DNA of 64,000 bases from Magallana gigas (taxonomy: Eukaryota). Below are positions 15,772 through 32,567 of this stretch, one piece after another (the first letter of the stretch is position 1; each line of letters begins with the position of its first letter). The stretch covers positions 54,498,001-54,562,000 of the forward strand of contig NC_088858.1 of assembly GCF_963853765.1 (NCBI RefSeq). The letters are read 5' to 3'. The notes under the pieces are model-generated. The model did not search any database. It saw only the letters and a list, made by a program, of their open reading frames with translations, and was not told the DNA's origin. The translations under genes were made by a program, and so were the position numbers.

Positions 15772-17234
15772 TTGCGCGTGAGACTGTTATGTTATCGTTA
15801 CAGTGACGTAGCAATGAAAGTTTGATTTTAATGGTTTGATAAATTATTTATTTATTATAACTATTTCATTTGGAAAGGTTAACGTTGGAATTTTTGAAAA
15901 AATGATTTATGTTCACATGTTTAAAAAATACAAGATTCTAATCCATTTTTTAAATTGAAGTTGTCAATATGAATAAATAAAATAAAGTTTTTATTTCCCT
16001 TCTCGAATAATTTAAGGATAAATAAATGTGTAAATCGATTCATGCACGGATCTTCTGAGAACAAAATGATTCTAAATATGCAATGAAGTTGGAAACAATT
16101 TTTCTAAAACAGAAAGAAATTTATTATAGAAAACTAGATATTTTCCATCCATATTCCAGCCAAAAATCATAAATGATTGATTAAACGGTTAACACGAGTT
16201 ATTGGATTATAACTTATTATAGTATTACACAATTTCGATACAGCATAACCATAATTCTTCCCATCTCCCAACAATCTCATCTTCTATGCAAACAATATTG
16301 CATTACGTACAGTGAATATCCATTGAAAATCTTGCTTAAAGAGACCCCATCATCGCATTTTAACGATAAATACGATGTAAAACCTATACATCGTTGTTGT
16401 GGTTGGATTTATCAAGGAGGCGATTGTTATTATTGGCTTCAATTTAGTTGGTTGGATTTTTTTAATTTGTATTCAAAATGAGGTAAAATTGCGAAATTGA
16501 ATTGATCTCAAAGTGTTAAAACGTTGACATATATAATATTATAATTATGGTTGTTATGCTTGAGTTCGGGAATGATGAGCAGTAAAAGTGGCAACACTCT
16601 ATTCAGTACCATTTTAACAAGAGCTTGGACTTTGTTTAGTTGTGTCAAACAGTAATGTGACACAGGCATGTATATTTCATTGCTGGCCACTCAGCCATGG
16701 CTCTTTGATATCAACAAGAATTGTCTGGCTTTTGAGCTAAGACTACGCAATAGGTGCATATTTCGCTTAAAACCGCGTCATTTTAAACTTGTTTTAACGC
16801 AAGATATAGATAGCTACGTCCTAATGAGAGTCCAAGGTCTTGTTAAAATGGTTCTAATAGAAAAATAAACCTAGAACACACAACGCATTCCGTGATTTTG
16901 AAACGTAAAGCGTCGCTACCGACTTAGGTTTTAGCTACTGAAAAGAAGCAAATTAGTTGTAAATGAAATATCTGACTCGTAAACGTTTGATAGCTGGTAT
17001 ATCCGATATAGTGAGGACATTATTATATCTGTTGATACTAGTAACATAAGTAGATATTGTCGTTCTTTTTAAAGTATAATCAGCTAACGTGAGTAAGCCT
17101 TGGATTTGTTTTGCAAACTTTGGTTTGATTTTAAGGTATTCCGTCAGTGCACGGGGCTGGGTAACACAGTGTCAGGATGGCATCCGCACTCTACTGTAAA
17201 AGGTATCGATACAGTGTGTCATCACAATGTGTCA

Positions 17235-17530
17235 GTACACGATGTCCACACACGGTATTTGTACACAATGCTAGCACCTGGTGCTATTACATGGCATCAA
17301 TGCAATATGTCGGTACACGATGTCATGACACGGAATCCACACACAGTATTTGTACACAATGCTAGCACATGGTGCTATTACATGGCATCAATGCAATATG
17401 TCGGTACATGATGTCATGACACGGAATCCATACACGATATTTGTACACAATGCTAGCACCTGGTGCTATTATATGGCATCAATGTAATATGTCAGTACAT
17501 GACACGGAATCAGTACAGGGTGTTTGTACA
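17235..17530. repeat. About 91-bp tandem repeat, about 3 units
   Basis: TATTTGTACACAATGCTAGCAC recurs at about 91-bp spacing. Confidence 0.85.
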
Positions 17531-19405
17531 CAGTGTAAGCATCTTGCCAGGGGGCTATAAAGCTTAAACGAGCTCACTTTTGATCTCATTCTCACTTTTT
17601 CACTATATGTTCCTTTGGTAAAAGTGAGACTGAGATCAAAAGTGCGATCGTCTAACTGTTATGGTCTCTGAGCTTGGTGTTTATACATGGCATCAATACA
17701 ATGTGTCAGTACTCGACGTCATGACACAATTAATGTTATGACACGGTATCAGTCTTAAGTCTCGGTACAAGATGTGATGAATGGGCACCATTACAAATTG
17801 CCTTTTATCGTGTCAGTCATGAGTGCACAAAACAATGGCATGTATGGTAAAAACGGCATATAACTGAGCCATTTGGCAATCTAACAGGATGTCAGAACAT
17901 ATGTCAAAAAGACTTTAACGTTAACGGTCTTTTAGTTGTAAAAAAAAAACCCATTTAACAATACATATTCATTTAAACATTGATGTCGGGATAACACGCA
18001 CTCACGCTTTGAACTAAATGTAATAAACGGACAGTCAGATGGAATCTCGCAGTGTCCTTACTGATGCTGCCTTGTTTTACACAGAATACTGTATCTATCT
18101 GTGATGTATGACATTCAAAACAACTTTCCTCTATATTTTACATGCATGTTCATTTAGACTGAAAATCGCAAATATATGCAAATAAATGATATGGTTTAGA
18201 GTGTAAGTAATTTTCCATCAGTTGAAATCACGTAAATCGAGGTAAGGTAAATGCGAACAGTGTCGGTAACATTTATATTAATGGAAACCTCAATATGATA
18301 TTAGTCAGTGTCTTTTCTGCATTTAATCCATTTTGATACGATGATTAGTTCAGTAATTTTTATTTTCCCGCACTTTATGGCTTTAAGGTAGTTATATAGA
18401 AAATAAAATAAATTCTTTCTATTCAATTTGAAATGCTTTAAAAAAGTCACACGGATACCTCTGTTCAGTTTTAATGTAATATCTTTTTACAGAATAGGTC
18501 AAGAACAATGACACTATTTTAGACCATTTTAAGAGAGACTGTAGGCAATCTGGATATATTTCATTCGTCATAAATGAAAAAAGTCCGAGTTCCTTATATT
18601 TCATTGCAAATGATAGTTACAAAACACGATTTTTCCCTGAGTTATCTTTAGACTGGGCTCCGGTACTTCTTATTGAACAAACTATAAAAATGTCATGAAG
18701 CATCACTGAAAGAACTCATACAATGTATCTCAAATCTAAGAAACTCGTAAGCTCATTTCATATGCTACATGTAGATTATAACCTTAAAATTGACAAGCAT
18801 GTTAAGAAAGCAAAAAAACCTATTCAGTTCTACCTGGAGAAGGCTAAGGAAAAGCAAAGCGGAAGGATCACACTCTCAGACAGAGCTAGGATTTGCGAAA
18901 CAAGAATCGAATCAGCCTGGGGGCGAAACGTGAGGGACTCACCAATCTCATCAAAATGACATTCAAAATGAACTTTCACGTTTGGTCGAGCAATGGAATA
19001 TTAGATCCTTTGCAGAAATATCTAACTTCGTCCAATATTTGAAACCTCAATATCAATTCAACAGTTAGAATATATTTTGATTTTTACAGACTTATCATTT
19101 TGAAAAATTTTAAATATGTTTAGAATTACCATTTTAACGCCATTATCTAATTTATGTTATTGTTTTTATCTGAGTTTGAAAATCTAAATATGTTTCATAT
19201 ATTTTGTGACTCAATCAGTTTATACAATTATTAATTTGTCCTATATTTGCACACTTATTTAAATTTTAAAGATTTTTTTTTGTAAATTGGTGAAAATGAA
19301 AAGTACATCCAGCTGCGTAGAGGAATTGACAACGTAGATAACGGCGCCGTACCATCGGACCTTGTCTTATCTGTCACGACACCGCAAACCTTTGTGCCTA
19401 TCGTA

Positions 19406-20143: not shown

Positions 20144-23100
20144 TTATTTATTTATTTAATAAGAAAACACGAAAAACGTTCAATATAGCTTAAGCGCGTT
20201 CATTTTAAAACCTTCAGAAGCTATATAATAGAGAGGTTGAGATTTAAAACGTGTACGGGTACGCGTACGTGTGTTAAAACTACACGTACACGTACACGTT
20301 TTTGTAATTTATCAGTTGAGATTTCTTAACTTATGGGATATAAATGTGTACGTTAATCGACGCAGTTTTGTGACATGAATTTATTTAGTTAATTCCAAAT
20401 AAATGGTAAATTTCTTATCAATTTTCAATGAAATGAAGCTTAAAAATCTATATAATGTATCACAAGAATACATTCACTCATCAAAAAGATTTTATTTGTT
20501 GTAAAAAGCTACACGTTTGTACTTACGTGTAGACGACACTCTACAAGTTTAGAGAACGTGTAGAAACCATGTCGTCACAAAAACTGATGACGTAATTCGC
20601 GAAGATATTAGGTGGTTCCCCTAGTTCACGTACACGTACCCGTACACGTTTGAAATCTCAACCTCTCTAATGGTAACGTGTCGTCAAAAAACTTCAACGT
20701 TGAACGGCAATGTCTATTATGACGTCATAGTTAGATTTAGCGGAAAAAAAATATAATTTGCAACATAGTAGATAACATACAATTCAATACATTATTATAA
20801 CAGACAGTTCAATTTGGGTTTAAAAATACGGATGAAATGTTTTTCTTTTTCTATTCTTTGCACATTACTGTCACTCAACAGTTTGAAAAATGGAAATATT
20901 TTAAACTGTTTATTACTGCAAGTGTCCAAATGATCACTTAACAGTATCTGTCGATATCCCGGGGTGTTTATGTGTTGTTTGTTTACACGCACACGGGCCC
21001 GAAGTGGATTGCTTCACCCCTGCGAATGTGTTCGGAATATTTTCTTTATCGTTGCTAAGTATATAATAAATCCAAAGGTGCTCGAATGAAAGATCACAAG
21101 ACTTCACCGAGATTTGTTCAGTTCCTGTAAAATTTCGAGCGGAAGTATAAGTGTTCGGATAATATTCTCAAAATACGTAAGTACTGGTCGTTTTTCATAT
21201 CATATCCTACTTTGATTTATGTTAAAACATGACAATCTTTTAAGATGTACGTCTTATTTCACTATATAGCGGTTATTTATATTAACGATAATATTCAGAA
21301 CAGAGTTATCGTTCGTGTTCAACCACATGTAGAGTGGTTGAAAATATAAACATTGGGTTGCTTAATAAAATCATAGCCATGTTTGATGCTTGTGGTGTGC
21401 AATAACATGTTTTTAAAAAAAATAATGGGTGTCTGTCTTGCATAAATACTTAGAATATCGAGCCATTTTCAAGGAACATTCTGCATAAAATAGTATAGTC
21501 TATTTCACTATTGATACTATTACTAGGTCAGGCGCGGATCGAAAATTAACCCTCATAAAGAATCTCTACAAAGCATGTTAATTGTTGGACAGAGAAAAAA
21601 ACTATTTTTTTGTATTGTCACATTTATTTCTAGAAAACATTTTATCCACCAAATAATGAAGATAAAGTTTAAAATCAATAAACCACTAGATTTTAATCAT
21701 ATTTGATTACAAGTACCTAGATTCTATGAAATACTAGTAGACTATGAATACGAGGCACGATTTTTACTGCGAAACTGAAAGGGTCAAATAAAACCACGTG
21801 GTCTAAAATTTAAATGACAATAACATTCGCAGGGGTGTGCTTGTTTCCCCAATATTGTACTCGTTGCAGCCTGGACATGTTATAACATATAATACATTCT
21901 TAGTGTCACATGACATGTCCGTCTTTACGATGAATTCTTTTCCGCTGAAGTCGTACTTAGATCCCTCTGTAATATGGTCACAGGTCCCGCATCGTGGGTT
22001 TCTACATTTAGTAACTGTGTGTTTAGTATCAAAATGGGAAGTGCACAATATTCGTTTTAGTTTTTAGGCTGACGTCTGCTGTTAATGAGGTTCACATCTT
22101 TGTAAATTTCTTTCGTGGATTGGTCGTTGATGAGGATATTATTAAACTGATGAATTATTGGCGTAATGTTCATATTTCTTGGATTAAAAGTATGTACAAA
22201 TGGAATAATATCAATGGTTTTTTCCGGATGTTTACTGGCTAATAATTCCGATCTATCATACTTCCTGGCTTTACGAATTCCGTCGTCAATGAGACCTTCG
22301 GGATAACCTTGGTTAGTGAGGTAATGTTTGAGTTCCCTGAGGCGTATGTCTTGGGTGTTTTCATCGCTCACAATGGTACAAATACGTCGAGCTAAATTAT
22401 ATGGAATAGCAGTTTTTGTATGATGAGGGTGACACGAATTAAAATGAAGATATTGATGTGTGTCAGTTGTTTTGTAGTATATATCAGTAAACAGTTTTGA
22501 ATTCTTCTTTATAACCAGAACGTCCAAAAATGGTAATTTGGTGTCACTACTTTCTAAAGTAAATTTGATGTTGGGATCAAGGTTGTTCACAAGTTGATGA
22601 AATATCTTTAAATTTTCGTCACTATTATTCCATAAAATAAAGCAATCGTCAAAAAATCGTTTCCAACTAGATTGAATAGATCTGGCTTCTCCTTCTCCCC
22701 AGAGTGAAAGTATTTCTTCAAGGTATCCAAGAGTAACAGTGGCGTATGTTGGTGCCACCTTTTTTAGGAGGAGGCAAGCCCAATCGAGGGCAAAGATACA
22801 TACCGAGGAAACGCCAACAACGGACACAGATGTATTAGATGCTCGTGAAGCTAATATCACACAGCAACCAATGCAACATAATCCTTAAGTGTTCAACCTC
22901 TCGAACAGAGTATTGAATGAAACTGAAATAAAATTATTATCAAAAGGTTTAAAATATACACCAACTCTCCGTATGAATAACGAACAACTTAAAACGGATA
23001 TTAAGGAATGTACAAGAAAACTTCGACTAAAGGAATATTTTTACGAGGATGATGATGATTCTACACAAAATCTAAATGAGGAACAAGAACAGGATCTCGT

Positions 23101-26100
23101 CAGAAACAAGTCAGATTTTAATCCAAAACGGGGTAGAAATCAAACTTTTGATACAGTGTGTAATACTCTTGATAATTTCCAACTTTCTAACGTTCCAAGA
23201 CAAACAAAGTCAAATCTATCGAAAAAAGAGGAACAAGCCTTCAAAGATTTATGTCATGATGACAGCATTGTTATCAAAGAGGTCGACAAAGGAGGCGGAG
23301 TTGTTGTAATGAATAAGGCATATTATGAAGTTAAAATATTAGATATGCTTAATGACCCAGAATATTATAAACACGTTGAAGAAAACCAGGAGAAAAAAAC
23401 TCAGTCAAAATAAAACAATTTGTGAATGAAAATTTGTCAAATATCACTACAAAGGAAAGAGACTATCTTATTAACTTTGATGCCCGAGAAAGTCAATTCT
23501 ACGGATTACCAAAAGTGCATAAATCATTACAAATAAAAAATGCTGTAAAAAACCCAGACTGGAGAATATATTTGCTGCCTAAATCCAGTAGACCTCTCTT
23601 TTAGACCTATTGTAGGAGGACCTAATTCATCCACCGAAAGATTAAGTCATTTGATTGATATTTTACTAAAACCCTACTGTGAAAAAGTTCCCAGTTTTAT
23701 TAAGGATGATGTGAATTTAATAAACCAATTGCCTGAAAGTGTTCAACATACCGCAAAACTTGTGTCATTGGACGTGGTCAGTTTATATTCTAATATACTG
23801 TAACGTTTCTGAGTTCGATATGGGATTCGGCTGCTCTGCCTGAGCAAATCAAAGAGTGAATTAAATGATCTATTTCCTCAATCACAGATTTAAATTTGAA
23901 ATATGTACAAATAATATCCCCCGGTTCTCTGTGGCGCACGCACTTCAAACTACGATTGCGTATGCGCTGCTCGAAGACAGGAGCGTACGCGCCGTTCCGG
24001 GACTGTAGCGTTCTAACTACTGTCAACAAGCCAATTTGTATATTTATTACTCCAAATATACACCTATAGTCTCGAAAGCCTATTACAGGCACGTAAGACT
24101 ACAGACAGGTTATTCTTACCAACCTTAATTTCTTTCCTGGCTTCGATGTGTTGATGTCTCGGCCGTCGAACACAGACTCTCCGATCCTACTGATTTTCTC
24201 AGCTTATATACCCTTCGGGTATCACGTGACCAGCTGAGGATCGAATGGGATGAGTACATGAAACCGGAAGTCAGTCAGCACAATTCTACCACAGGGAACC
24301 GAAGGGATATTTTCGATTTTGATCATAACTTCGCTTCACAACCCACACCTCCGAGGAATGCGTCTCGCATTCTCACAAATCAATATCAAAAAGGAACAAG
24401 ATTAAACAACACTATACATTTTTTTTTTTAATTTTCCGTTTATCTAAGACAGTAACATATATTTTCAGATGCACTACATCTAATTCTCAAAGCAAACATG
24501 TAAAGGTTAATAGTAATAGCAGTGCAATATCTTTGCTCTCTAGCTTGAAATTGACCAAAAGTCATCTTAAAACCACTCTTCATCTTCATGGACTTCTATC
24601 ACCGATTCTCCACCAACTTGATACGATTTCTGAACTCGATCTAAGCGCCTCCTCTTAGTTCCTTCTGTCTGCGTGTCAACATTTACTCCCGTTGAAGTCA
24701 AGGTCTGGGTAGATGCGTCCACGGTAAGTATACCAGCTTGAACAGCAACGGCCCTTAAGGTGCTTGGTTTGGATGCAGAAGCAGTAATGGTGAGGTCTTT
24801 AGCTGCTCGCTCACGTGGAGTTATCATCGGAGTCGCAAAAGGACTTGGAGCAGTTGGAACAACGGCATCAGGACTCACTATGGCCTTTGCTCTAGGAACA
24901 TAAACTGGAAGTGGTCTCGTGGGTTTCCTCTTCGTCACTTCTGGGGTAACAGGGATTGTGCGCAGGATGTCAGATTCACCTACCACGTCAGAGAGACTCC
25001 CAGGATCCAATGATTCCCACTCATGATCAGACTCGCTTTCTGCTTGTACGGTTCCAGAACTACCACTGTGCCGTGTTCTCTCGTGTCTCTGCATATCACT
25101 CTTCTTGTTGGTGGCGTAATCACACTGCGTACACTCAAATCTTTTCTGGCGACGCTTCCTTCCACACTCTATAACATGTTTCTCCCAGGAATTCTCTTCC
25201 ATAATGCGCTCATTGCACATAGGACATCGGTGTCCCTCTTTCCTAGCAGTGGTCTTAGTGTTAACCATTTCCTACAACATAAAATAACAATACCAAACAT
25301 TGAATTCTGTCTGCTCACTATTTACACATTTTAAACAATACAGATATTATAACTGAACTATATTTTGTATTCTACCACAAAATCATCATGCCAAGCAGGT
25401 GCGCGTTTTTGGCGCAGGGGTCTACTTTTAAGGTCTGCGCTCGCGCTTTCTATATCATTATCACACACATGCGTATTGTCATCAATAGCATGCAAGTTGT
25501 CAGCCTCATACTCTATTTCGTTTCTCTCTACTGGCAGTTCTTGTTCTTCACCTGTCAATATCTGAGATTTACACTTTCGCATGCGATCGCAATGAATAAC
25601 ACCACTCTTGCCTCGAAATCCGCATGCTACTATGTAAAGAAAATCAGACAACTTTTTCTCTATGACAAAAGGACCTTTCCAAAACGATGTCAGTTTTGGC
25701 GAATAGCCGCTTTTTCTAACCGGAAAATACACATAGACCTTTTCACCGGGCTCAAATATTGACCATGCTACTTTCGCATCATGATATTTCTTCTGGCGTA
25801 GCATCTCTTTTTCTGTATGTTCTCTAACAATTTTGTGCGCGGTTTCCAGGCGTTCACGCAAAATCCATACCCACTGATTAGAAGGAATGTCTTTTATATC
25901 AGATGACATCTCGTACATCAGGTCTAACGGAGTAGTCGCCTCTCTACCCAACATCAACATGTTTGGGGAGAAGTTAGTTGTCTCGTGCGCTGTGGATCTG
26001 TAAGCCATTAATAAATAAGGGAGATACACATCCCAGTCACGCTGGTTTTCTTGAACATAGGTACTGAGCATCGAGAGCAGTGTACGGTTAAATCGTTCCA

Positions 26101-29100
26101 CCATACCATCTGATTTCGGGTGATAAGGTGTGGTACGTGTTTTTCTAATACCCAATAACCGACACATTTCAGAAAACAGCTTGCTCTCGTATTGGCGCCC
26201 TTGATCAGAATGCAGAACTGATGGTACGCCAAATCTGGCTATAACTTGCTCCATGATTGTGCTTGCTACGGTTTCAGCATCCATACTTTGTAGAGCGAAA
26301 GCCTCTGTCCACTTTGTAAAATAATCGGACACTACAAGTATATGGCGATTTCCTCTGTCCGTCTCTGGCAATTCGCACAATATATCAGTTGCAATCCTCT
26401 CCATTGGAGTACCGGAACCAGCAATTTGCATAGGAGCTCTTTGCTTTGGATTTGGATTCTTGCGCATGGTGCATTTTTCACAACCGGAAATATACTGCTG
26501 GACATCTTTCCGAAACCCAGGCCAGTAATACTTTTGCCTTATTTTGGCCAGAGTTTTCGTAACACCTAAGTGTCCTGATGTATGGCTGTCATGGCACATA
26601 TTAAGTACTCTCCGACGCTCTTCATTGGGTATAATAGCCTGGAATGTTTCCTTGCCTGAGGGTAGCAGTATCCATTTTCGCATTAACAGCCCTTCTTTTA
26701 TGCACAGGCGATCAAATTGATTCCAGAGTGATTTCACCACAAACCCTTGCTGCGTTATCTTAGAGTTACAAGGTCTTTTCCCACTTTCAACCCAAGAACG
26801 AACCAACTGAATGTCCTTGCTTTCACTCTGCGCTTCTTTCAAAGTATGGTCATCTTTCTCGCTCGAGTCTAGATTTGCGTACACAGTTCGAACTTTTTGC
26901 ACTGTTTCAGGTTCGAAACCACACTGGGGACATGGTATTCTACTGAGTGCATCTGCGTTACCATGCTTTCGACCAGGGCGGTGCTCAATCTCAAAGTCGT
27001 ACGTACTGATCACTTCCAGCCACCTCGCCATTTGACCTTCCGGATCCTTAAATCGTAACAGCCATCTTAGTGATCCGTGGTCTGTCCTGATTAGAAAATG
27101 ACATCCATAAAGGTAGTGTCGAAAATGCTTGATGAAGTGAACAACCGCCAATAATTCTCTCCTGGTAACGCAATATCGCTTTTCAGCTTTAGACAAGGTT
27201 CGGCTTGCATATGCAATCACACGTTCTTTATCATCAATTTTCTGCGAAAGCACAGCACCGATTGCCGTTCCACTGGCATCCGTATCTAGTATAAATTGCT
27301 TTGTTACATCAGGTAATGCTAAAATTGGCGCACTGACCAATCGATCACGCAACACCTCAAAAGCTTCCTGGGTCTCTTTCGTCCATTGAAACTTCCTTCC
27401 CTTCTCAGTGAGTCGATGCAGGGGCTTGGCTATGGAAGCAAAGTCTCGTATGAAGCGCCTGTAGTAGCTGCAAAGGCCAAGGAAAGATCGAATTTCTGAG
27501 ACTTGGTATCGGCCAATCAGCAACTGCTTTTACCTTTTCCGGATCAGTAGCAATACCATCCTGAGATATTATATGTCCAAGGTACGAAACCTTCTTTGCA
27601 AAAAGGTTGCACTTTTTAGCCTTTAGTTTGAGACCTGCCTGTCGCAAACGCTTGAACACCTCTCCGAGATTTTCTAGCATGTCTTCAAACGATTTCCCGA
27701 CAACAATTATGTCGTCCAGATATACCAAGCACTTGTCCCATTGAAGGCCTGCAAGCACTGTCTCCATGAGACGTTCGAAAGTGGCAGGTGCACAACACAA
27801 ACCGAAGGGCATAACCCTAAACTGATATAACCCTTTGCGCGTAACAAAGGCAGTCTTCTCCTTGTCTCCTTTTTCCATGCCGACCTGCCAGTACCCACTG
27901 CTGAGATCTAGTGTAGAAAACATAGCATGCCCTGAAAGATGGTCAAACGCTTCCTCTATCTTTGGAAGTGGATATGCATCTTTCACTGTAACTTCGTTTA
28001 ATCGACGATAGTCAACGCAAAAGCGCATTGTCCCATCTTTCTTACGAACTAGGACAACGGGTGATGCCCACGGGCTGATAGATGTTTCGATTACCCCTTT
28101 ATCAACCATTTCATTGACTTGCTTATCAACCTCTTGAGATAAATGTAGAGGGATTCGTCGAGGCGCCTGTTTGATAGGACGAGTTCCTAGTTCAGTATTT
28201 ATCTTGTGTTTCACAACATGTGTCCGCCCTAAATCATAGTTCGATGTTGCGAACAAATCCTCGTTTTTGTGCAAGAATAGTTCTACCTTCGAAAACTGCG
28301 CAGGAGACAGATTAAGTTTGCACCTGTCAAACAACTCCCGCAAATCACTGCGTAATCCCTTAGCACTATTTTCAGCCTCACCCGCGGAAGCATTTTGTTC
28401 TTCCACTGCAGTCATTTTTGCAATCAAAGTACCACCATGAATTTGCTGAACGCTCTCAGTGATATTCATGAGACAAACTGGCACAATATTATGTCCCTTT
28501 ACCAAAGTTCGGCCAACCAATGCGCGTCCACTCTCAAGAAACTTTGGCTCGGCCTCTACCAAATAGTCTGCGGAACCAAATGTATTTTCTCCCGGTACCT
28601 TAGCCTGAATTACAACTTCACTTCTCGGTGGCAGGCACACATCCTTATCCGCCGTTACCCTATAGCACCCTAATGTACCTTCCCATGAGAAGCGACACTC
28701 CTCATTATTCAATTTCAGAGAACTTCGTTCGAAGTTTATATCTCCTTTGCATGCTCTAAGAAAATCAAGACCCAGTATCCCGTCTACACTAATATCCGCT
28801 ACCATTAGTTTCACCGTTTCCCTCGACCTTCCTATCTTTATAACGAAATCGGCTTTTCCATACTGACAAAGTCTTGAGCCACTGGCACTCGTTATAACTT
28901 GTCTACTCTCCTCTAATACGGGCTTGTCTGGTAGTTTGCCATATATTCTCTTAGACAACAAAGTCAGGGATGCACCAGTATCAATGAGAAGTTTTGTTTT
29001 GAGGCCGTTTACTTCTGAATCTATAAAAATACCTGCTTCTTCACATAGGTTGCTTGCACCTACATTTCCTTTAGAACTCTTTCGATTTTTTCGCCTCTGC

Positions 29101-32100
29101 TTACCGCGAATTCGACGCGCATTCCCATCTTTAGGCTGCTCACTGCGTCGAGTACTATTATCGCGCTCTCTCTTCAATTTGGGACAATTTCTACGGATGT
29201 GTCCTTCTTCTGAGCATTTGTAACACTTCACTTTCCCGCTTCTTTGCGTATTGGCAAATCTGTGACCTTCAAGAACGCCTTGATTTTTACCTTTCTCCTC
29301 AATGCGCTTCTCTATCGATTCTATCTTATCCTGAAGTGTCTGCATCATTTCAAATAAATCTTTGGACTGCGATTCATTCTCACTAGTGGGTTTTGTGAAG
29401 TTCACACTGTGCACGTGGCTTCTCTTTTCAGTCTTGTAATATGCGTCCAACTCAACTGCTAAGCGTATTGCTTCATTTAAATTCTGAGGTCTACTTTGCT
29501 TTAAGCGCAATCGCATGTCGGAATCTACCAGCGCATCTATAAATGCCTCTTTTCCAAGTGTTTCTCTTACCTCCATTAGTACTGAAGGATAAGCCAGACA
29601 AGTAAGTCTCCTAATTGCTTGACCTAGTTCTGTCAGTGTTTCCGAAGCTCTCTGTCGTCTCTCTTTCAATTGCGCACGGTAAAGCTCAGTTTGATTCGGC
29701 GGCGCAAATCGCTCCTCCAGTGCTTCAACCAACAGATTATACTGTTGTCCCGTCTCTGACGAGACATTCCCAAGCACCCCTTGCGCAGCACCTCGCAATG
29801 ATACGGCTAAATAGAGTCCTTTCTCTCTATCAGGCCAGTTATTAATGGCCGCACAAGCGTCAAAATGAGACTTGTAATCAATCCAAGAATGACTACCGTC
29901 AAAAGTCGCAGGTTTTATATTGCATTTTGTTGCATTCCTGTCGGTGGTGATTGGCATTTGCGTAGGCGGACGACTGTTAAAATTCCTTAGCGCAAAGTCG
30001 TTATTTCGTCTCTGGCCCACAGAATCTGTAACTGTACTCAATTCACCTGTAGCTAATTGTTGTTGCACTTGCGCTGGCACTGGTATCTGCGAATGCACTT
30101 GCAGTGGTAAATAGTGTTGTGCATGCATACGATTTTCTTGCGGCGCACTCGCCGTTTGTAGATGCGCATTTGATGCGTTTGATAGCCTATCAGTCACGGC
30201 TACCGGCGCATCCGCTTGATACTGTTGCGCACTTTCATAATGTGCATTCTGTGCAGAAGCAGGCTTTCGTTGTGCCGTTTTTCTTAAAGTAACACCATCA
30301 ATGTAACTACCCTCCGCCTGAGAGTTTTCCGTTTGCCTTAAATTCACGCTCACCACTGTATCATCCGCAACTCCTTCAGTTAAGCATTCCCGAACTACAA
30401 CTTCCTTGGGTATAGTAGCAATGCCAGAATCGCGCATCGATCTATTTCTCACTACTGGTGTCGACTTCTTTTCTATTTCAAGGCGCAATCGCTCACAACT
30501 CTGTTCAAGGAAAGAGATTTCCTCATCCAGCATTTCATCCATTGCGCTCATCATTTAACAAATAAAAGAGAAACAAACAAACAGTACTCTATTTTAACAA
30601 CTAATTTTAAATGTGATTATTTCTTTCATTTGCCGAATCCCACCGCTCGCTGCCACCAAATTTATGTAACGTTTCTGAGTTCGATATGGGATTCGGCTGC
30701 TCTGCCTGAGCAAATCAAAGAGTGAATTAAATGATCTATTTCCTCAATCACAGATTTAAATTTGAAATATGTACAAATAATATCCCCCGGTTCTCTGTGG
30801 CGCACGCACTTCAAACTACGATTGCGTATGCGCTGCTCGAAGACAGGAGCGTACGCGCCGTTCCGGGACTGTAGCGTTCTAACTACTGTCAACAAGCCAA
30901 TTTGTATATTTATTACTCCAAATATACACCTATAGTCTCGAAAGCCTATTACAGGCACGTAAGACTACAGACAGGTTATTCTTACCAACCTTAATTTCTT
31001 TCCTGGCTTCGATGTGTTGATGTCTCGGCCGTCGAACACAGACTCTCCGATCCTACTGATTTTCTCAGCTTATATACCCTTCGGGTATCACGTGACCAGC
31101 TGAGGATCGAATGGGATGAGTACATGAAACCGGAAGTCAGTCAGCACAATTCTACCACAGGGAACCGAAGGGATATTTTCGATTTTGATCATAACTTCGC
31201 TTCAATACCAACAGAGCTTGGAATAAAGGCGGTGAGCTATTGGATCAACAAGCATCCTCAAATTCTACAAGATCGCTTTACAAAAGAATATATACTCGAA
31301 GGGTTACATATAATACTTCAAAACAACACCTTTGCATTCGGAAAAAATCATTACTTACAAGTGAAAGGTACAGCAATGGGGACAAAGGTGGCACCAACAT
31401 ACGCCACTGTAACTCTTTGATACCTTGAAGAAAAGCTACACGAACAAATACTTTCACTCTGAGGAGAAAAAGAAGCCAGATCTATTAAATCTAGTTGGAA
31501 ACGATTTCTAGACGATTGCTTTATTTTATGGAATAATAGTGACGAAAATTTAAAGATATTTTATCAACTTGTGAACAACCTTGATCCCAACATCAAATTT
31601 ACTTTAAAAAGTAGTGACACCAAATTACCATTTTTGGACGTTCTGGTTATAAAGAAGAATTCAAAACTTTTTACTGATATATACTACAAAACAACTGACA
31701 CACATCAATATCTTCATTTTAATTCGTGTCACCCTCATCATACAAAAACTGCTATTCCATATAATTTAGCTCGACGTATTTGTACCATTGTGAGCGATGA
31801 AAACACCCAAGACATACGCCTCAGGGAACTCAAACATTACCTCACTAACCAAGGTTATCCCGAAGGTCTCATTGACGACGGAATTCGTAAAGCCAGGAAG
31901 TATGATAGATCGGAATTATTAGCCAGTAAACATCCGGAAAAAACCATTGATATTATTCCATTTGTACATACTTTTAATCCAAGAAATATGAACATTACGC
32001 CAATAATTCATCAGTTTAATAATATCCTCATCAACGACCAATCCACGAAAGAAATTTACAAAGATGTGAACTTCATTAACAGCAGACGTCAGCCTAAAAA

Positions 32101-32567
32101 TCTAAAACGAATATTGTTCACTTCCCATTTTGATACTAAACACACAGTTACTAAATGTAGAAACCCACGATGCGGGACCTGTGACCATATTACAGAGGGA
32201 TCTAAGTACGACTTCAGCGGAAAAGAATTCATCATAAAGACGGACATGTCATGTGACACTAAGAATGTATTATATGTTATAACATGTCCAGGCTGCAACG
32301 AGTACAATACTAGGGAAACAAGCAATCCACTTCGGGCCCGTGTGCGTGTACATAAACAACACATAAACACCCCGGGATATCGACAGATACTGTTAAGTGA
32401 GCATTTGGACACTCGCGACAATAAACAGTTTAAAATATTTCCATTTTACAAACTGTTGAGTGACAGTTATGTGCAAAGAAGAGAAAAAGAAAAACATTTC
32501 ATCCGTATTTTTAAACCCAAATTGAACTGTCTGTAATAATCAACAGTTTGTAAAATGGAAATATTTT

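Follow-up and report, generated by a model that had tools for sequence, protein, structure and literature searches.

A conserved third open reading frame with a histone H3-like N terminus in a lineage of oyster Gypsy retrotransposons

What is encoded by a small, intact gene lying between the integrase gene and the polypurine tract (PPT) of a Gypsy retrotransposon, and what might it do for the element that carries it? This question is raised by a 64,000-nucleotide stretch of the genome of the oyster Magallana gigas (contig NC_088858.1, positions 54,498,001 to 54,562,000 of the forward strand; hereafter "the window," with coordinates counted from its first nucleotide). A first-pass annotation described an open reading frame (ORF) of 233 codons at this place on the coding strand of a young Gypsy element, noted two zinc fingers in its product, and proposed that the product may serve as a nuclear regulator dimerized by the dynein light chain LC8. 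We find that the gene, called ORF3 below, is intact where the annotation placed it, and that it has been conserved as an accessory gene by a lineage of oyster Gypsy elements, with at least 18 families in this genome. Based on sequence comparisons, the resemblance of its N terminus to the tail of histone H3 is probably real, and is strongest in one family, named after copy L083. The parts of ORF3 are as follows.

24567..25268 (−), ORF3 accessory gene, 233 amino acids, intact
25239..25268 (−), histone H3-tail-like N terminus; 6 of 9 residues match the host H3 tail
25164..25226 (−), zinc finger 1, C2HC (C15, C18, H31, C35)
25068..25133 (−), zinc finger 2, C2H2 (C46, C49, H62, H67)
25002..25019 (−), acidic motif with conserved W84, D88, and P89 (15 of 17 families; shuffle maximum 4)
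24912..24929 (−), motif of R114, K115, T117, and P119 (T117 and P119 in 30 of 30 aligned sequences, R114 in 29 of 30)
24666..24743 (−), LC8-type anchors VQA 176–178, TQT 187–189, and TQT 199–201
24573..24656 (−), basic patch KRRRL (205–209) and predicted C-terminal β-hairpin with an acidic-aromatic end

The H3-like N terminus, the acidic W84...D88-P89 motif, the invariant R114-T117-P119 motif, and an acceptor-like site before the ATG are absent from the first-pass annotation.

ORF3 Is Retained Across a Lineage of Oyster Elements

In the window copy, ORF3 starts 89 nucleotides past the integrase stop codon and ends 218 nucleotides ahead of the PPT-like tract. When the oyster's own genome was searched with ORF3, 98 of the 150 candidates scored were matches, and 60 of these were taken with their flanks. 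With the window copy included, the resulting 61 loci comprise 46 full-length ORFs (195 to 260 amino acids), two probable host finger genes (L084 and L089), and 13 short or broken copies; the latter two groups were excluded from the family set. The full-length ORFs fall into 17 clusters at <80% identity, here called families, that are 25–60% identical to the window protein. In every family, ORF3 is preceded by reverse transcriptase (RT) and integrase, and paired repeats occupy the positions of the long terminal repeats (LTRs); in 14 of the 17 representatives ORF3 lies 32 to 250 nucleotides past the integrase stop. Survival of the ORF in sister elements, a test named by the first-pass annotation, is thus borne out.

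As a safeguard against circularity, elements were also sampled by the PPT alone, independently of ORF3. This gave 44 matches, 24 of them new by coordinates, among which 16 match the ORF3 profile, four have ORF3 deleted, three are derivatives of gag fragments, and one is without element domains. An 18th family was found by this route (L110, with the N terminus MANTKLTKAK). ORF3-deleted copies of ORF3-bearing families are represented by L106, L111, L117, and L121, and the LTR pairs of L111 and L121 are older (87–91% identity). We also observed pol-deleted derivatives (L069, L080, L109, L119, L120, L125, L126, P0017, and P0018) that run from gag-protease straight into a tail-less ORF3. LTR identity is 98.8–99.8% in L109, L119, and L120, and because several of these derivatives have such near-identical LTRs, the data suggest that they are amplified non-autonomous families.

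At the protein level, homologues on record come from Saccostrea, Ostrea edulis, Magallana gigas, and Pinctada, the closest named ones being from oysters; a further homologue in a Thiodiazotropha bin is probably DNA of the host clam. The search of representative sequences was swamped by multi-finger proteins, with 16 of the top 150 matches being short, single-stretch, and family-like. Three clusters (P0006, P0102, and P0129) hold oyster models named "RE1-silencing transcription factor-like" that are ORF3 homologues, and several such "REST-like" gene models are probably retrotransposon genes, whose mislabeling the ORF3 family serves to flag. Membership in REST/NRSF itself, which we take to be a long, multi-finger host repressor, was rejected: The ORF3 family has two fingers in 197 to 252 amino acids and resides within LTR elements.

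These database labels might be taken to favor a one-off, neutral capture of a piece of a host zinc-finger gene. Such an origin is exceedingly improbable, and is refuted by the presence of at least 18 families and several genera, by estimates of selection, and by the congruence of trees. Among 10 between-family pairs, the proportion of nonsynonymous differences (pN) is 0.28–0.40 and that of synonymous differences (pS) is 0.73–0.89; eight pairs are saturated, and two give dN/dS values of 0.14 and 0.22. Within families, pooled dN is 0.011 and pooled dS is 0.032 (6,401 codon pairs; single close pairs, 0.13–1.25). ORF3 is under purifying selection, as the dN/dS check proposed in the first-pass annotation was meant to reveal, and among six ORF3 regions, pN is lowest in the tail in both pairs tested. 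In within-genome trees, whose deep branches are unresolved, four starred groups of the integrase tree reappear, again starred, in that of ORF3, and pairwise identities are correlated (Mantel rho 0.37, p 0.0012). This pairing of ORF3 with the RT and integrase trees amounts to vertical inheritance with the element.

Anatomy and Predicted Fold of the ORF3 Protein

Twelve columns are invariant among the 30 aligned sequences: M1, K5, T7, C15, C18, H31, C46, C49, H62, T117, P119, and Q200. The two fingers recognized in the first-pass annotation are supported by their residues, by a Pfam match (zf-H2C2_5, E 4.4e-7), and by the predicted fold; no Pfam family besides zinc fingers passes for the window protein. 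The predicted model (pTM 0.27, mean pLDDT 65) consists of the two fingers, a middle part that is disordered, and a β-hairpin at the C terminus. Both fingers are predicted to be folded (block pLDDT 86–96), and the second combines the C-x2-C...H-x3-5-H spacing with the predicted β-β-α fold of a C2H2 finger. The hairpin is predicted at residues 207–232 (strands 207–218 and 221–232; block pLDDT 84–87), whereas residues 151–202, which hold the TQT anchors, are predicted to be disordered (pLDDT <50). The KRRRL patch that had been described as resembling a nuclear localization signal is present, but it is only loosely conserved and overlaps the predicted start of the hairpin.

Finger 2 carries K or R at helix position −1 in 30 of 30 sequences and R at +6 in 26 of 30. 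Finger 1 is mostly acidic at helix positions +2 and +3, and for this reason likely reads no bases. A UBZ4 assignment for finger 1 was rejected, because the Asp two residues past the His in the helix, which we take to be the hallmark of UBZ4-type C2HC fingers, is absent from the relevant column in 30 sequences (mostly L, I, or V). Foldseek returned only generic finger matches for ORF3, none at E ≤0.001, and the ESM Atlas only unnamed or generic finger clusters.

For the R114-T117-P119 motif, a phospho-site of the 14-3-3 type and a motif of the RBBP4 type are candidate readings; a PDB profile search with this motif gave no match. A reading of the W84 motif as a kinesin W-acidic motif fits only 7 of 16 families. 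The view that ORF3 is not an Env protein holds, since a transmembrane (TM) segment is lacking in 17 of 17 families: The peak of the 19-residue Kyte-Doolittle mean is 0.92 in the window protein and ≤1.08 across the families. A subclade of L047, L048, and L052 has an extra H-C-x-C-C cluster just before the TQT, a possible metal site.

The N Terminus Resembles the Tail of Histone H3

Host H3 starts with MARTKQTARK, and copy L077, of the L083 family, starts with MARTKNTARK (8 of 9 residues matching). By H3 position, the 17 families keep T3 in 14, K4 in 17, T6 in 17, R8 in 11, and K9 in 11; for 26 database proteins, which partly belong to the same families, the corresponding counts are 22, 25, 26, 21, and 19. 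In 17 of 17 families, Met is followed by A, P, or V. Both Lys codons are in use at K4 and all four Thr codons at T6, and because synonymous codons vary so freely at these positions, the constraint is one on the protein.

Several searches address whether the match exceeds chance. A 12-residue N-terminal profile compared with 177,635 PDB sequences retrieved only H3 (residues 1–11; E 0.53 and 4.1), and without the L083 family it still retrieved only H3 (E 5.1). When the residues of H3 were permuted, 3 of 22,680 orders reached the true score (0.001 without the L083 family), and none of 261,358 control windows from 133 long control proteins did so. Genome-wide, the H3-start pattern with position 5 left free has 30 matches, namely 29 histone H3 loci and copy L077. 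The match thus lies beyond chance and in N-terminal register, with two profile variants giving negative results.

These and other observations weigh against the histone reading. The E-values of the N-terminal profile are not formally significant; the profile minus Met and the L083 family has no PDB match, and the first 20 residues of the window protein fail to retrieve H3 from the PDB, giving RING-finger matches only. At H3 position 2, Arg is present in 1 of 17 families and in 0 of 26 database proteins; Ala is found at position 7 in one of each set, and no sequence has Gln at position 5. In 9 of 17 families, the residue that follows Thr6 is Pro. The families are kin, so that family counts are not independent. 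Many H3 readers require R2; its poor conservation disfavors these readers, and those of T3-K4-x-T6 would fit better.

Perhaps, therefore, the tail is a coincidence, being a basic patch for import, DNA binding, or CDK regulation on an otherwise ordinary LC8-dimerized zinc-finger regulator. The weak PDB E-values, the two unmatched profile variants, and the loss of R2 are in keeping with this, as is the Pro after Thr6, which presumably creates a CDK-type site and would be a rival reason for conservation. However, Thr6 is also invariant in the eight families without a following Pro, the register is fixed to the initiator Met, L077 matches at eight of nine positions, and the permutation p is 1e-4 to 1e-3. 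We consider coincidence quite improbable.

The sequence markers of a SNAG domain, which we take to be Pro1, Arg2, and Phe4, are poorly matched: Position 4 is an invariant, modifiable Lys in 17 of 17 families where SNAG presumably has Phe, Arg2 is kept in only one, and SNAG-domain membership was rejected. These differences also count against an improbable alternative in which ORF3 is a SNAG-like self-repressor, its tail hooking LSD1/CoREST and its fingers sitting at the LTR such that the element is dampened and harm to the host is limited. Pro does follow Met in 6 of 17 families, and the layout is that of SNAIL-type factors, in which Pro1 is critical for LSD1 engagement (PMC13316430). Low steady-state RNA says nothing on the direction of the effect. 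SNAIL and GFI1 likewise join an H3-tail-imitating N-terminal peptide to C2H2 fingers, but they are host repressors whose mimicry is one of shape, with little sequence identity (PMC13316430). In contrast, the likeness of ORF3 to H3 is one of sequence, and ORF3 has one canonical and one C2HC finger, carries LC8 sites, and is encoded by the element.

TQT Anchors of the LC8 Type Are Conserved

Both TQT motifs are where the first-pass annotation located them (residues 187–189, nucleotides 24702–24710; residues 199–201, nucleotides 24666–24674), and their conservation, which it had asked about, is pronounced. A [T/V]Q[T/C] site occurs in 17 of 17 families (shuffle mean 2.4, maximum 9), D-x-x-[T/V]QT occurs in 13 of 17 (maximum 2 in 2,000 shuffles), and Q200 is invariant in 30 of 30 sequences. 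Together with the predicted disorder around them, this gives ORF3 the form of an LC8 client, a TQT-anchored motif in a disordered region. ASCIZ/ATMIN is an LC8 client with many more sites. Among PDB sequences, the best match to a 12-column profile of the last TQT site is Panoramix (7K3J, E 0.008), and CFAP91 also matched.

For dimerization by LC8, the motif-level part of the proposal therefore stands and the structural part is weak. The predicted complex of ORF3 with host LC8 (L103) scores 0.46 versus 0.12 for the best of three controls, with ≥50% contact agreement between runs and partner pLDDT ≥43. In calibration, 51 of 78 solved pairs reached the mark, as did 2 of 108 mismatched pairs; those reaching it with scores ≤0.60 included only 5 of the 78 solved pairs but all four mismatches that passed. 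Because LC8-TQT complexes have already been solved, the score may also reflect memory. Binding of LC8 by ORF3 thus has support from the motif and weak support from the model.

ORF3 May Act on the Chromatin of Its Own Element

The H3-like N terminus tilts our interpretation toward chromatin. We tentatively favor the possibility that ORF3 is a nuclear protein, dimerized by LC8 and tethered by its fingers, whose H3-tail mimic would keep the element transcribed. The protein would be made from a spliced subgenomic RNA in which a donor in the LTR is joined to an acceptor just before the ATG. Removal of Met, which the identity of residue 2 in every family leads us to expect, would leave a free N terminus comparable to Ala1 of H3 or Pro1 of SNAIL. 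Two chains could be zipped together by LC8 at one to three TQT sites, pairing their single C2H2 fingers for avid DNA binding, and the fingers would place ORF3 on the element's own chromatin. There the tail may engage host enzymes or readers of the H3K4 region (LSD1/CoREST, DNMT3-ADD, PHD readers, and SET1/COMPASS are candidates), so that repressors are blocked or activators are recruited at the LTR and the element stays transcribed. Because ORF3-deleted copies of ORF3-bearing families exist, ORF3 would probably act in trans.

More speculative is a fuller version of this proposal, in which an old bivalve retrotransposon lineage encodes its own histone mimic, a free-floating H3 tail, complete with counterparts of K4 and K9, that is carried by an LC8-dimerized zinc-finger scaffold. 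H3-tail recognition and Panoramix-type LC8/TQT dimerization might thereby be turned against the host to shield or activate the LTRs, with the mimic welded to integrase in one family.

The candidate splice sites of the window copy are as follows.

25272..25295 (−), T-rich tract followed by TAG, candidate splice acceptor, 3 nucleotides before the ATG
30980..30985 (−), candidate splice donor GTAAGA, ~90 nucleotides downstream of the TATA box

In 13 of 17 families, a run of pyrimidines with a YAG is found ≤16 nucleotides from the ATG, compared with 4.1% of 2,720 and 0 of 2,125 controls. The acceptor of the window copy falls just short of the pyrimidine cutoff and three sister copies pass it; the donor position varies across families. 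We infer from these sites that ORF3 would be expressed from a spliced message. The window stretch is contained in 20 listed sequencing runs, nine of them recorded as RNA, and 4 of 24 listed runs were compared with 24345–31210. Raw depth was ~1× (78 and 80 reads), and contig depth is no gauge of gene ranking. In a poly(A) run, reads at this depth come mostly from the sense strand of the element. A contig joint at 24926/31135 was rejected, as it includes seven foreign letters and has noncanonical ends.

Three points count against the proposal. No canonical joint between LTR and ORF3 was seen in the four runs at ~1× raw depth, where reads span the acceptor unspliced. A scan for LTR 7-mers yielded no shared word beyond the TATA box, and because no such word stands out, no binding site for the fingers was found. 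Finally, fusion of ORF3 to integrase in the L083 family would bury the tail unless the protein is also translated separately.

This fusion points to another explanation, which we regard as distinctly unlikely, wherein ORF3 is an adaptor of the preintegration complex whose tail serves as bait for chromatin-bound H3 readers, much like the chromodomains of chromoviruses. ORF3 is in frame with the integrase C terminus in L083, L085, and L086 (3 of 4 copies read, L077 being unfused), and this fused family is the most divergent and has the most H3-like tail. The fixed position of ORF3 shortly past the integrase stop in 14 of 17 representatives is also consistent with integration tethering. However, in the other families ORF3 stands apart from integrase and has an acceptor-like site to itself, and both ORF3-deleted and pol-deleted derivatives exist.

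An unlikely, though less remote, alternative is a Rev-like role, as for the CERV protein of the Caenorhabditis elegans element Cer1. ORF3 made from spliced RNA would use its fingers and basic patches to bind the genomic RNA in its unspliced form, oligomerize through LC8, and promote nuclear export. The acceptor-like site in 13 of 17 families would create an export problem of the Cer1 type (PMC10309623), the invariant phospho-type motif recalls the phosphorylation that CERV needs, and 8 of 30 members weakly match the dsRNA-binding finger zf-C2H2_jaz (best E 4e-4). This alternative leaves the invariant Lys and Thr at H3 positions 4 and 6 unexplained, however, and finger 2 retains DNA-type K/R at −1 and +6, with zinc fingers alone passing Pfam in the window protein. 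CERV is similarly a non-Env protein of an animal Gypsy element; it is a regulator made from spliced RNA, phospho-regulated, and oligomeric, as ORF3 would be in this alternative, but it exports genomic RNA, and neither zinc fingers nor an H3-like tail nor an LC8 site is mentioned in the abstract, on whose description this comparison relies (PMC10309623).

Comparison with Known Systems

ORF3 is a real, conserved, and apparently undescribed accessory gene family of the third-ORF type of LTR elements. The env genes of errantiviruses, the rotifer GDSL, DEDDy, and TM ORF3s (PMC5408684), and TRP28 of the plant element Retand (PMC11963269) are likewise lineage-wide ORFs between pol and the 3′ LTR with an expected spliced message. 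Compared with these, the oyster ORF3 is without a TM segment or enzyme domain, and it is on the sense strand where TRP28 is antisense (PMC11963269). In the accessible text, neither "zinc" nor "histone" was found in the rotifer paper (PMC5408684), nor "histone" in the Retand paper (PMC11963269), nor "ORF" or "zinc" in the accessible main text of PMC6238403.

Panoramix binds LC8 through two TQT/V sites and thereby dimerizes the fly piRNA silencing complex (PMC7919418). Like ORF3, Panoramix/SFiNX has tandem D-x-x-TQT motifs ~12 residues apart, in a disordered stretch that precedes a folded element, and a nuclear chromatin context (PMC7919418). It is a host silencer of transposons, whereas in the oyster the motif is on the transposon's own protein (PMC7919418). 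Influenza NS1 is, like ORF3, a parasite protein with an H3-tail-like sequence (PMC12937675). Such viral mimics are short C-terminal or internal motifs of exogenous viruses; the ORF3 sequence is N-terminal, in H3 register, spans K4 and K9, and has been kept across an old lineage. SARS-CoV-2 ORF8 is presumably another viral histone mimic with an H3-tail-like sequence. Histone mimics are thus established in exogenous viruses, and anti-silencing transposon proteins are well described in plants (VANC). For VANC of plant MuDR, element-encoded anti-silencing in trans has been shown (PMC13547354), and is only proposed for ORF3; VANC proteins belong to plant DNA transposons and have domains unrelated to those of ORF3 (PMC13547354).

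In the literature reachable without subscription, we found no report of ORF3, of a retrotransposon H3-tail mimic, or of a protein encoded by an element and carrying LC8 motifs, and Repbase, Dfam, or GyDB may already annotate ORF3. There is a fair chance that ORF3 is the first transposon-borne histone mimic. If so, it would offer a compact and experimentally tractable way to ask how young LTR elements stay active despite piRNA and DNA-methylation defenses in animals, and its 18 naturally diverged versions would map which residues of the tail matter.

The Host Element and Its Surroundings

The element that carries ORF3 has the LTRs, target duplication, primer-binding site, PPT, and gag-protease-RT-RNase H-integrase order of a Ty3/Gypsy retrotransposon.

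23799–31204 (−), Gypsy element with 540-bp LTRs and a 4-bp target duplication
30665..31204 (−), 5′ LTR, 540 bp, 0 differences from the 3′ LTR
31070–31076 (−), TATA box in the 5′ LTR
30648..30658 (−), primer-binding-site-like sequence, similar in most clade families
27405..30554 (−), gag (CCHC knuckle), protease, and RT, in a frame that closes early
25358..27031 (−), end of the RNase H region and integrase (Integrase_H2C2, rve, p58_C)
24342..24351 (−), G-rich tract at the PPT position, near-identical across the clade
23799..24338 (−), 3′ LTR, 540 bp, 0 differences from the 5′ LTR
31205–31208 and 23795–23798, target duplication ATAC, 4 bp

The youth attributed to the element is confirmed: Because its LTRs are identical at 540 of 540 positions and it is flanked by a 4-bp duplication, the insertion must be very recent. 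In the window copy, pol is broken near 27.5 kb, the gag-pol frame ending at 27405 and integrase lying in a different frame. The tract at the PPT position, found in 14 of 17 families, is not pure purine, and we take it to resemble an EGR1-type finger site, as a candidate. Upstream of the TATA box, the 5′ LTR contains an E-box (CACGTG) and ETS-like words (31087–31096 and 31128–31136); CACGTGA is present in 6 of 15 family LTRs, which is within the shuffle maximum.

On either side of the element lie the halves of an apparent Penelope-type retroelement (22973–23798 and 31205–32536, +), whose RT frame the insertion interrupts. This tentative name relies on motifs, RT followed by a GIY-YIG-like end, and Pfam gave no passing match for the putative frame. 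Elsewhere in the window, tandem repeats with units of ~91 bp and ~41 bp occur at 17197–17783 and 44122–44486.

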